Shown: positions 1,793-64,000 of the stretch, one piece after another
How positions within the stretch are numbered: position 1 is the first letter of the stretch
How the letters are laid out: every line of letters begins with the position of its first letter
NCBI GenBank assembly: GCA_000739515.1
Contig: DF820455.1
Coordinates: forward strand, 1,304,712-1,368,711
DNA length: 64,000 nucleotides
Source: Candidatus Moduliflexus flocculans
Lineage (GTDB): Bacteria > Moduliflexota > Moduliflexia > Moduliflexales > Moduliflexaceae
Reading direction: 5' to 3'
The notes under the pieces: generated by a model
Databases searched by the model: none
Told to the model about the DNA's origin: nothing
Seen by the model: only the letters and a program-made list of their open reading frames with translations
Translations under genes and position numbers: made by a program

Positions 1793-2921
1793 TTATTGAC
1801 TGACCTTACGCATACAACGTTTGAAGCTTTTGAAAGCTCGCTTTGAGCGCGGTCAGATAAATTTTACTGCGCAAGGCAAAATGATTCATGTGATGCTTGA
1901 GTTTCAATTGTTCACGTTTAAACACGGCATAAATCGCCGCAAAAACGTGTGTACTCTGCGTGGCTTTCGTTTGAGTTGGCGAATGTGTCAAGGCCGTATG
2001 CGATTTCAGGGATGTATGAAAGACTTCCACGTTCCATCGTGCCTGATAGAGGGTGGTGATTTGGTCGTACGTCAGCGAGGTCTCGCTTGTGACGACAGAC
2101 AGCACGCCTTCACTGCCGTCTTGGTTTCTCAAGACGTGTTTGCATACGGCGACGGGAAAAGAGACCCCTTTCAGAAACACGTGTTGCGTGACGTTCGGTT
2201 GAAGGTCACGCGTCTCAATCTGGACAAAACGACGATTCATGTTGTCCAGTGCGCTCAGAGCCACTGTCCGATTCCCTTGAATCGCCCTGACAAATGCTTT
2301 ATTCAGCGTGAGCCGGATAACGGTCATGTTGTCTTTGGAGGCAAACCAACTATCCATGAGGACAACACGGAAGGAGAGTTGGTTCCAGGTGCACACCTGG
2401 AGCATCTGGCGAGCCAATTCATTTTGGGTCACCTCGCTTTTGCGCTTTTCACGGCGTGTTTTCAGGTCGCAAAACCGAATCGGCTTGGTGATGAGTTCAA
2501 AGGCGACGGGGCTGTTCTTTCCGTCAATAGGGTAGAGGCAATTCAAGAGATTGCCCCCTGTCACCATGCGTCCTTTGCTATGGTCGAAATGCTACGTAAT
2601 GAGGTCATTTTCGTCAGTCCATGCGTTTTCAGCAATGGTGTCGTCCAGAATCACGCCCCCTTCCTGTTGGGTGATCGCACGCACAGTGGGCTTCACCAAG
2701 CGCCATAATTCGCGAGAGTTGCACTCGGTGTTGGCTAAAAAACGAGTGATTTTATCATGACTGATCGTGTGATCTAAGACGTCTGATAAACCGGTGGCGG
2801 TTGTTTGTCCAAATGAACTGAGCAGATAATCTGCATACAGGGCTAACAGTATTTTATCCATCATGCTACTATGTGAAAACACAGAATTTTTGCAATGAAA
2901 ATGCGTAAGGTCAGTTAGTAA
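1793..2921 (-). mobile_element. IS4/IS5-superfamily insertion sequence, about 1.13 kb, with 21-bp imperfect terminal IRs TTAYTRACTGACCTTACGCAT
   Basis: Left IR 1793-1813 and right IR 2901-2921 as reverse complements with 2 mismatches. Encloses a single transposase reading frame. Confidence 0.6.
1806..2882 (-). pseudogene. DDE transposase of the YREK type (motif YQARWNVEVFHTSLK), interrupted by an in-frame TAG at 2592-2594
   Basis: The 96-aa (2592-2882) and 253-aa (1806-2567) ORFs are in the same frame, separated only by one amber codon. Confidence 0.6.
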
Positions 2922-3075
2922 CTCATGTTACGCAGCCGATTCGAGACGAATGACCGCACACTCCCCTCCGGGGAGGGGTTGGGGGTGGGTTCTTGACACG
3001 AGCAATCACTCACGGACGAACCCACCCCTTGCCCCTCCCAGGAGGGGAATTGTCGGCGGCGCTGCGTAACATCAG
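2921..3075. repeat. MITE-like element family 1, copy A: 155 bp, 14-bp TIRs (ACT)CATGTTACGCAGC, GC-rich internal hairpin CCCCTCCGGGGAGGGG...
   Basis: Self-complementary internal structure. Identical at 154 of 155 positions to the reverse complement of 63846-64000. Flanked by TTAGTAA on both sides (2915-2921 and 3076-3082). Confidence 0.7.
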
Positions 3076-3078
3076 TTA

Positions 3079-3215
3079 GTAAAATGTAAAAAATAACTTC
3101 CACGTATCTGCCAACACCCCACCCCCAGCCCATCCCCAACGGGGAGGGGAGTTTCCCCCTCTCCTTCGGAGAGGGGCAGGGGGGAGGTTTTTGGAAGTTA
3201 TTTTTTCAACTTTAC
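3079..3215. repeat. MITE-like element family 2, G-rich-core variant: AT-rich TIRs GTAAAATGTAAAAAATAACTTCC / GGAAGTTATTTTTTCAACTTTAC
   Basis: TIRs are reverse complements. The core has GGGGAGGGG hairpins. The same TIRs bound the copies at 5333-5420, 10527-10614 and 54739-54803. Confidence 0.6.
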
Positions 3216-3226
3216 TTAGGAAAACT

Positions 3227-62549: not shown

Positions 62550-62815
62550 GGCAGTTCCTCCTGAAATGTTTCGTAAGTTTTTAAGTGAGTATAAATAAAT
62601 TTGTATCATTTTTTAGGAGCGCCAGCCTCCGGCTGGCAGCACCCGACCGGAGGTCGGCGCTCCAAAAATGTTCAAGAAATTTATTTATAGTTACTTAGGA
62701 GTCATAAGGAGTGCCAAAGCAAGCGTTGGCACTCCTGAATGGCAGTAGGTACGACAAACACATGTTATCGGCCATGAACGCGACCGTTTAACATGTTGAG
62801 AATCCACCCTCTTTT

Positions 62816-63469
62816 CTACGATGTCTCCTGCGTCGCAATTTCGATAAGCAGAGCTTTCAGGGTTTTTAGAATTTTGAAGATATCGAATAGCTCATCTTTC
62901 AGTGCATTATGCCCGGCGCTGATGCAATAGGTCTGCGCGTCTAACACCATGAAATACCACATTTTCCCGACGACATACAGGCCGTAGATCGGATGCGGGC
63001 GCGGATTCAAGGCTTGCGCAGCGAGCATCGCCGAAAGCGCCTGCGCCGCCGGATCGCCTTTCGGCTCGTTCTCTTTTTTATATTCGTGAAAGCAGAAATA
63101 CGGGATTTTGGGCGAATATAAGCCTTTTGCAATGACGGCGTCTGGTTCTCCCGCCAATTCGTAGTCGCCGACAACGGCGGACAGCGGACGTTCGGAAAAT
63201 ATCGAAAATTCGGGCGTATTGAAATTCACGAATGTGAGCATCGGCCCGATGAAATATTCGATCAATTCGGTTTCGTTCCATGCGTCGGCATGATCGATCA
63301 GCAATTCTTGCAGCCGGCTGAGCAGAACGGTTTCCACCTCGTCAATCAACTGCGTGGCGGAACGTTCGATCCATTCGTCGAACGCCGGGAGCGTCCGGTG
63401 GCGAGTCAATCCGAACGTCTCTTCCAGTTCTTCTTTATTCCAATCGGAAAACAATCGTTTTGTTGGCAT
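62816..63469 (-). CDS. Hypothetical protein, 217 aa, no recognised family, immediately upstream of and co-oriented with the MVP gene
   Basis: Clean ORF with two GC hairpins at 62613-62660 and 62710-62741 between it and the MVP gene. Confidence 0.4.
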   Translation of the reverse strand: MPTKRLFSDWNKEELEETFGLTRHRTLPAFDEWIERSATQLIDEVETVLLSRLQELLIDHADAWNETELIEYFIGPMLTFVNFNTPEFSIFSERPLSAVVGDYELAGEPDAVIAKGLYSPKIPYFCFHEYKKENEPKGDPAAQALSAMLAAQALNPRPHPIYGLYVVGKMWYFMVLDAQTYCISAGHNALKDELFDIFKILKTLKALLIEIATQETS

Positions 63470-63845
63470 GATGGTTGCACCTCCTGTTTTGTATAGCTGA
63501 AAACGATGATTTTTAGAGTATTGGGATATTCTTCATGAACGATTGCATGAAAGCATCCTGAAATATCTGTTGCCTGTCAATGAAAAAATGAGAACGCATC
63601 CCCTAACAAGCGCCTTGTTAAGTTTGAAAATCTGGAGGCAGCATGTTCGCAGTTTTGTACGAATTTTCTTGACCGAATTTTCGATGGTGCGGCAAGATTT
63701 ATCTTATCAATCACACAATCATCACGAAGAAAATAATTCGGTTTTCTCGCTCGTTGAGCTTGTCGAAACGAGCAGGGCGCGTTCCCTTCAACAAGCTCAG
63801 GGAACGGAGGCGTTTGTCATTGTCATAACCGAATTATATTAACGT

Positions 63846-64000
63846 CTGATGTTACGCAGCGCCGCCGACAATTCCCCTCCTGGGAGGGGTAAGGGGTGGG
63901 TTCGTCCGTGAGTGATTGCTCGTGTCAAGAACCCACCCCCAACCCCTCCCCGGAGGGGAGTGTGCGGTCATTCGTCTCGAATCGGCTGCGTAACATGAGT
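63846..64000. repeat. MITE family 1, copy B, inverted relative to copy A at 2921-3075; runs to the window edge
   Basis: Reverse complement matches 2921-3075 at 154 of 155 positions. Confidence 0.7.

Follow-up and report, generated by a model that had tools for sequence, protein, structure and literature searches.

Two inverted copies of a miniature element, probably of the ISAba11 group, in the genome of Candidatus Moduliflexus flocculans

The window analysed here, a 64,000-nt stretch of contig DF820455.1 (positions 1,304,712 to 1,368,711) of Candidatus (Ca.) Moduliflexus flocculans, contains two nearly identical short repeats in inverted orientation. With high probability, these repeats are copies of a non-autonomous MITE (miniature inverted-repeat transposable element) from a lineage of the ISAba11 group, IS701 family, of insertion sequences (ISs). 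They would represent two independent and recent insertions, and the interval between them would be ordinary chromosome.

A repeat search of the window recovered the inverted pair at 2921-3075 and 63846-64000, which is 155 nt long, 99% complementary and separated by 60,770 nt, in agreement with a preliminary description of this DNA; the match cannot be a product of chance. The sole difference between the copies is a G at 3031, which corresponds to an A (reverse-complement strand) at plus-strand coordinate 63890. The 155th matching base (2921 and 64000) belongs to the flanks, because perfect 7-bp direct repeats start directly outside the 15-bp ends of the element. The MITE proper thus measures 154 bp and extends from 2922 to 3075 on the plus strand (copy 1) and from 63846 to 63999 on the minus strand (copy 2, inverted relative to copy 1), with identity at 153 of 154 positions. 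Terminal inverted repeats (TIRs) had been reported before, and they are indeed present; their length, however, is 15 bp instead of the 14 bp stated, and the motif quoted for them, CATGTTACGCAGC, has 13 letters, the first of which is unmatched on the other arm. In copy 1 the left TIR (2922-2936, plus strand) is CTCATGTTACGCAGC and the right TIR (3061-3075, minus strand) is CTGATGTTACGCAGC. These are complementary at 14 of 15 positions, with 12 bases perfectly complementary and the mismatch at position 3, where the left TIR departs from the family consensus CTGATGTTACGCAGC. Both copies carry this variant, CTC in place of CTG, and therefore should descend from one master.

Copy 1 lies between perfect target site duplications (TSDs) of 7 bp, TTAGTAA (7/7 matches; 2915-2921 and 3076-3082, plus strand), the right one overlapping the end of a neighbouring palindromic element. 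On its inner side copy 2 is bordered by the candidate TSD TTAACGT (63839-63845, plus strand); on its outer side the window contains only the T at 64000, which is consistent with this TSD. The whole MITE is predicted to fold as a single long interrupted hairpin (-101.5 kcal/mol with RNA and -56.6 kcal/mol with DNA parameters; z = -10.6 against shuffled sequences in both cases), and its G+C content is 62% compared with 50% for the window, which bears out the long GC-rich hairpin described earlier. The only open reading frame (ORF) across copy 1 (74 aa, minus strand, 2915-3139) runs through both palindromic elements and was judged spurious from this position. Identification as a MITE, already proposed from the sequence, is thus backed by a size below approximately 300 bp, the absence of coding capacity, TIRs matching those of transposase-encoding ISs, and a TSD of fixed length at copy 1. 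Two copies are present in the 64 kb of the window, and at least three related copies in a congeneric metagenome-assembled genome (MAG).

The IS group was recognized from full-length elements in other organisms. A tblastn search of plasmids with the transposase encoded beside copy 1 retrieved 221 records, one of which is annotated as 'group ISAba11 transposase'. Ends were read in five full-length ISs, from Thiothrix unzii pTunz2, Polaromonas naphthalenivorans pPNAP01, Acinetobacter schindleri pHZE23-1-1, Cyanobacterium sp. HL-69 and Stanieria sp. NIES-3757. All five end in CTGATGTTACGCA, three with a further GC at one or both ends, and their terminal 13-15 bp are those of the MITE TIR. Their transposases were compared, for two of the five, with the NCBIfam IS701 model NF049921 (cut-off 250 bits). 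Scores were 358 bits for Thiothrix and 342 bits for Acinetobacter, beside 324 bits for P0242, a transposase from another scaffold of Ca. M. flocculans, and 297 bits for the IS transposase in the window with a lost Trp restored (both are described below). Since the MITE TIRs are identical to the ends of these full-length ISAba11-group elements, the MITE is assigned to that IS group. Where flanks are intact, the ISs also share the 7-bp direct repeats (TATTTAA in Polaromonas, TTATTTA in Acinetobacter). They differ from the MITE in being approximately 1,108 bp long and carrying a transposase gene, whereas the MITE has 154 bp and none, and the interiors are unrelated. The transposase gene terminates within the right IS end, with a final Ala codon and its stop codon (GCG TAA), which likely accounts in part for the strong conservation of this end.

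Short elements with the same ends occur in distant bacteria. When bacterial genomes, one per species, were scanned for a 110-140-nt gap flanked on either side by the 12-bp TIR core, 12 loci in seven lineages were obtained: three in Hymenobacter fastidiosus, three in a Ca. Moduliflexus MAG, two in an Opitutaceae MAG, and one each in Methylococcaceae, Latescibacterota, Anaerolineae (a tandem pair) and Thiomargarita. Once these loci are aligned, conservation reaches three bases past the searched core, CTGATGTTACGCAGC...GCTGCGTAACATCAG, and then ends; the conserved extension CTGATG...CATCAG includes bases that were absent from the search pattern. The interiors vary between lineages, and only the copies of the Moduliflexus MAG resemble the window MITE (77-85% identity). 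Perfect 7-bp direct repeats directly outside the 15-bp ends were found in 9 of 14 testable family copies, window copy 1 included. Examples are TTATCAA, TGAATAA, TATATAA, CTAATCA, TCAGTAA and CAGATAA, with TnAnTAA as a rough consensus. The short elements in Anaerolineae retain the last 39 or so codons of the transposase, and derivation by deletion is therefore visible in that lineage. On the Thiomargarita contig (L011, 970-1195), several ISAba11-type ends lie within 220 bp, two of them abutting (GCGTAACATCA|ATGTTACGCAGC), which suggests tandem or nested MITE copies.

A second TIR-pair scan, carried out on a metagenome collection, returned at least 120 loci (L023-L142), approximately 118 of which were rejected because they represent an unrelated, much longer and very abundant palindromic repeat with GGG...CCC flanks and no 7-bp duplication. 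The ends of that repeat resemble TTCAGGCTTCCGCCGCGGTGTAAATGAGATCTTCGCTCTTCTGGG, and the 12-mer ATGTTACGCAGC is found on both of its arms without the CTG/CAG extension. Judging by contig names, its samples may be metagenomes of termite guts, in which case DNA of the host genome would be conceivable. Among the metagenome matches listed, only L078 and L092 are true relatives. Thus, the 12-mer pair is not diagnostic by itself, and the CTG/CAG extension in combination with the TSD is. A 40-mer specific to the window MITE was absent from the metagenome collection, and a blastn search of plasmids with the MITE gave only two short matches at chance level, the one in Nostoc not being a MITE.

Directly beside copy 1 the window contains an IS701-family (ISAba11-group) IS of 1,115 bp (1800-2914, minus strand). 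It has perfect 14-bp ends CTGACCTTACGCAT (1800-1813 and 2901-2914) that are related but not identical to the MITE TIR. Its transposase frame runs from 2882 to 1806 on the minus strand, matches the NCBIfam 'IS701 family transposase' model NF049921 as well as Pfam DDE_5/DDE_Tnp_1, and is interrupted by a single in-frame TAG at 2592-2594 at a position occupied by Trp in relatives. The broken ORF is present in the protein database under Ca. M. flocculans. The paralogue P0242 on another scaffold of this organism is intact (351 aa) and 78% identical to the transposase of the neighbouring IS. Separately, a second, degraded IS at 759-1645 consists of two overlapping ORFs split by a frame change (HTH_Tnp_4 and DDE_Tnp_4, IS5-family-like); with the IS701-type element it makes up a cluster of ISs immediately upstream of copy 1. 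At the other end of the window, the 217-aa protein encoded beside copy 2 matches U14_01145 of Ca. M. flocculans, on a scaffold of 1.62 Mb, with 100% identity.

A third end variant, CTGACC, is seen in the IS next to copy 1 and in L022, a relative with 81% identity to it (flanks TTAATAA/TTAATCA). P0242 shows 87% identity with the protein of L022 and has the C-terminus ...LYA, and its IS therefore probably has ends of the CTGACC type. The type element ISAba11, located in pAC1530 with coordinates from a preprint, has the ends TAGGACTTACGCA and a 5-bp duplication, TATAG, in contrast to the CTGATGTTACGCAGC ends and 7-bp TSD of the MITE. The core TTACGCA, however, lies at an equal distance from the tip in ISAba11 and in the elements studied here, which places the latter in a sister subgroup of ISAba11 with 7-bp duplications.

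Several observations weigh against the interpretation as recently mobilized MITEs of this IS lineage. The ends and the 5-bp TSD of ISAba11 itself differ from those of the 7-bp subgroup that comprises the MITE and the CTGATG-type ISs. None of the ISs examined resembles the interior of the window MITE, and its connection with the IS group is thus through the ends only; an origin of this interior by internal deletion of an IS is not apparent, whereas it is in the Anaerolineae relatives. Moreover, the neighbouring IS and L022, and judging by ...LYA also the IS of P0242, possess CTGACCTTACGCAT ends and not CTGATGTTACGCAGC. The search for a cognate transposase recommended in the preliminary description was thus successful outside this organism, where five full-length ISs carry the ends of the MITE, but a transposase with exactly these ends was not found in Ca. 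M. flocculans among the window DNA and database proteins. The TSD of copy 2 is only a candidate, as the second repeat, with 64000 as its first base, would extend past the window edge. Finally, the genome is a short-read metagenome bin, whose assembly could have homogenized the repeat copies, and gene conversion could have done likewise. The genome paper describes the bin as short-read and mate-pair-scaffolded and leaves ISs and MITEs unmentioned.

The earlier proposal of recent MITE activity is nevertheless supported by the comparison of the copies, which share 153 of 154 bases and the CTC variant in different flanks, while those of the congeneric MAG reach only 77-85% identity with them. An orthologous gene shows 83% identity, which is comparable to the divergence of the MITE copies. 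As stated before, the interval between the copies contains core genes: those for the ribosomal proteins L19 and S16, TrmD, RimM, Ffh and GlnA were found there, along with three chemoreceptor genes and others. A composite transposon, which would have one TSD on its outer flanks only and unrelated inner flanks, was considered and rejected, as it had been in the preliminary description: copy 1 is bordered on either side by a TSD of its own, and a cargo of 60.8 kb that includes these core genes would be required. The occurrence of TTAGTAA on both sides of copy 1 also implies that no net inversion has occurred since this copy inserted. The assembled orientation is therefore the one in which copy 1 inserted.

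These data are best explained by a simple scenario. The MITE consists of two 15-bp IS ends around a 124-bp G+C-rich foldback without coding function. The DDE transposase of an ISAba11-type IS group, made elsewhere in the genome, may bind these ends, excise or copy the element and insert it at A+T-rich sites resembling TnAnTAA, thereby duplicating 7 bp. Both copies would stem from one master and would have inserted separately and recently into two intergenic regions that already held small palindromic repeats, whereas the 60.8-kb interval would neither have moved with them nor have been net-inverted since copy 1 arrived. Mobilization in trans, the choice of transposase and the timing are features of this scenario that we infer, whereas the anatomy, the TSD, the ends in common with full-length ISs, the distribution of the family and the presence of a transposase paralogue in this genome are observed.

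An unlikely alternative is that the edge copy belongs to a more extended inverted duplication and is no independent MITE insertion; the adjacent IS and the MITE could, for instance, have moved or been copied as one 1.3-kb unit by means of the outer end of each. The match between the copies does extend to the last base of the window, where T at 64000 fits the complement of A2921 as well as the start of TTAACGT, and the neighbouring IS and the MITE have related ends. However, on the inner side the match stops exactly at the end of the MITE TIR, beyond which the flanks diverge at once; copy 1 possesses a complete TSD of its own on both sides; and elsewhere, in other genomes, 13 further family members of 147-169 bp stand alone. 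The two hypotheses make different predictions for the sequence past 64000, which would read TACTAACTGACCTTACGCAT after a joint duplication of IS and MITE, and TAACGT followed by unrelated sequence after an independent insertion.

Slightly less credit still is due to the two most far-reaching readings taken together, according to which the 61-kb segment, which seems to include the turning point of the GC skew, is reversibly inverted in part of the population, or a G+C-rich foldback subfamily of ISAba11-type MITEs has been transferred horizontally among phyla, with a very recent expansion in Moduliflexus. As a functional switch, in which homologous recombination between the copies flips the segment in part of the population, inversion is very doubtful. 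The notion that the copies are substrates for inversion is sound in principle, since 154 bp of inverted sequence with 99.4% identity should be long enough for RecA-dependent recombination. Yet a single inversion should leave copy 1 between TTAGTAA and ACGTTAA, whereas TTAGTAA is seen on both sides, and the assembled state thus appears un-inverted. The cumulative GC skew peaks near 11-12 kb and gene orientation flips from plus to minus at 14656/14680. This change, at approximately 12-14.7 kb, lies inside the interval and not at the MITE copies. In addition, rpsP-rimM-trmD-rplS and ffh are located on the minus strand where the GC skew is negative, and inverting them would probably be costly. The change of skew and orientation between approximately 11000 and 14700 may mark a point of convergence like that at a terminus or else the boundary of an old rearrangement. 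Related genomes, to which the preliminary description had looked for the inverted orientation, were uninformative: the gene for a vault protein is all that the window has in common with the best relatives of this gene (83-84% nucleotide identity), among them a 125-kb contig of a Moduliflexus MAG.

That the repeats are REP/REPIN palindromes moved by a RAYT (Y1) transposase, or a gene for a structured non-coding RNA, can practically be dismissed: the hairpin is very stable and G+C-rich, and many other small palindromic repeats occur in the window, but REPINs have neither a target duplication nor DDE-IS ends, the conserved ends and variable interiors among lineages argue against both versions, Rfam returned only sub-threshold matches to eukaryotic microRNA hairpins (at most 33 bits compared with gathering scores of 47-230), and no promoter-like or terminator-like site was detected in a scan of the element.

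Likeness to known systems is closest in general design. A review (PMC3184786) describes the cyanobacterial MITE Nezha as linked to ISNpu3-like elements, with which it has TIRs in common, and as having flanking direct repeats and a very stable hairpin. Nezha and the window MITE belong to the same size class (approximately 130-170 bp), and this resemblance, taken from the review's description, may serve as a lead. No Nostoc or Anabaena genome was matched in the TIR-pair scan, and no Nostoc plasmid with a close transposase was found in the plasmid search. The original account of Nezha by Zhou et al. in 2008 is said to report insertion into A+T-rich regions and a possible transfer to Polaromonas. 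In the plasmid search, Polaromonas was among the carriers of the IS group with the ends of the MITE. Like the window MITE, Correia, ERIC, RUP and MITEAba12 elements are short, non-coding, bounded by TIRs, flanked by TSDs, intergenic and hairpin-forming. They are, as a kind, mobilized in trans, as the window MITE would be; their parent IS families, TIRs and TSD lengths are different. For the window MITE, the scan for promoters and terminators gave no indication of a regulatory role. REP/REPIN sequences with RAYT resemble the repeats described here as G+C-rich extragenic palindromes in many copies, but lack the TSD and DDE-type TIRs that the window MITE has.

The finding is an ordinary one and matters little beyond annotation. 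Within this limit, it names the parent IS group for a repeat family in Moduliflexota (formerly KSB3), a phylum whose mobile elements have not been described, and shows the 15-bp ends of the IS subgroup to be unchanged across at least seven distant lineages. It also documents a 7-bp target duplication for this subgroup, compared with the 5 bp reported for ISAba11, and points to a site at which a metagenome-derived genome may be misassembled or rearranged.

Both MITE copies adjoin other palindromic repeats in intergenic DNA. Copy 1 sits at the edge of a palindromic repeat that belongs to another family (3078-3216) and has 25-nt inverted ends containing AAAAAATAACTTC and a G+C-rich interior. Copy 2 is adjoined by a small palindromic element (63730-63840) with the ends AAAATAATTCGGTT and AACCGAATTATATT, whose 14-nt inverted ends enclose a 20-nt inner inverted repeat. 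The AAAAAATAACTTC ... GAAGTTATTTTTT family combines conserved A+T-rich ends with variable G+C-rich hairpins, and nine end matches were found where 2.5 were expected. Besides the member next to copy 1 (approximately 3088-3206), further members lie at approximately 5342-5412, 10535-10605 and 54743-54810, and a related piece is present in the Moduliflexus MAG (L012, 3749-3818). At 10451-10685, 57-nt inverted arms (10451-10507 and 10629-10685) surround one member of the family; these nested palindromes suggest that one small element has inserted into another. A REP-like perfect palindrome, CTGTCAGACACCTTGAAGGTGTCTGACAG, occurs in six copies (18313-18355, 31634-31676, 41351-41393, 46457-46499, 46798-46840 and 58076-58118), three of which sit in repeats of approximately 92-95 bp (31605-31696, 41318-41412 and 46429-46524). 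Direct repeats of 300 nt at 29438-29737, 37599-37898 and 41771-42070 (64-73% identity) correspond to the signalling domain of three paralogous genes for methyl-accepting chemotaxis proteins. The vault protein used in the comparison of relatives (60063-62609, minus strand) has 848 aa and is a bacterial counterpart, by homology, of the major vault protein of eukaryotes. It contains MVP shoulder, Vault_3 and SPFH/Band 7 domains and has more than 6,700 database relatives at E <= 1e-50, which occur in many uncultured lineages.

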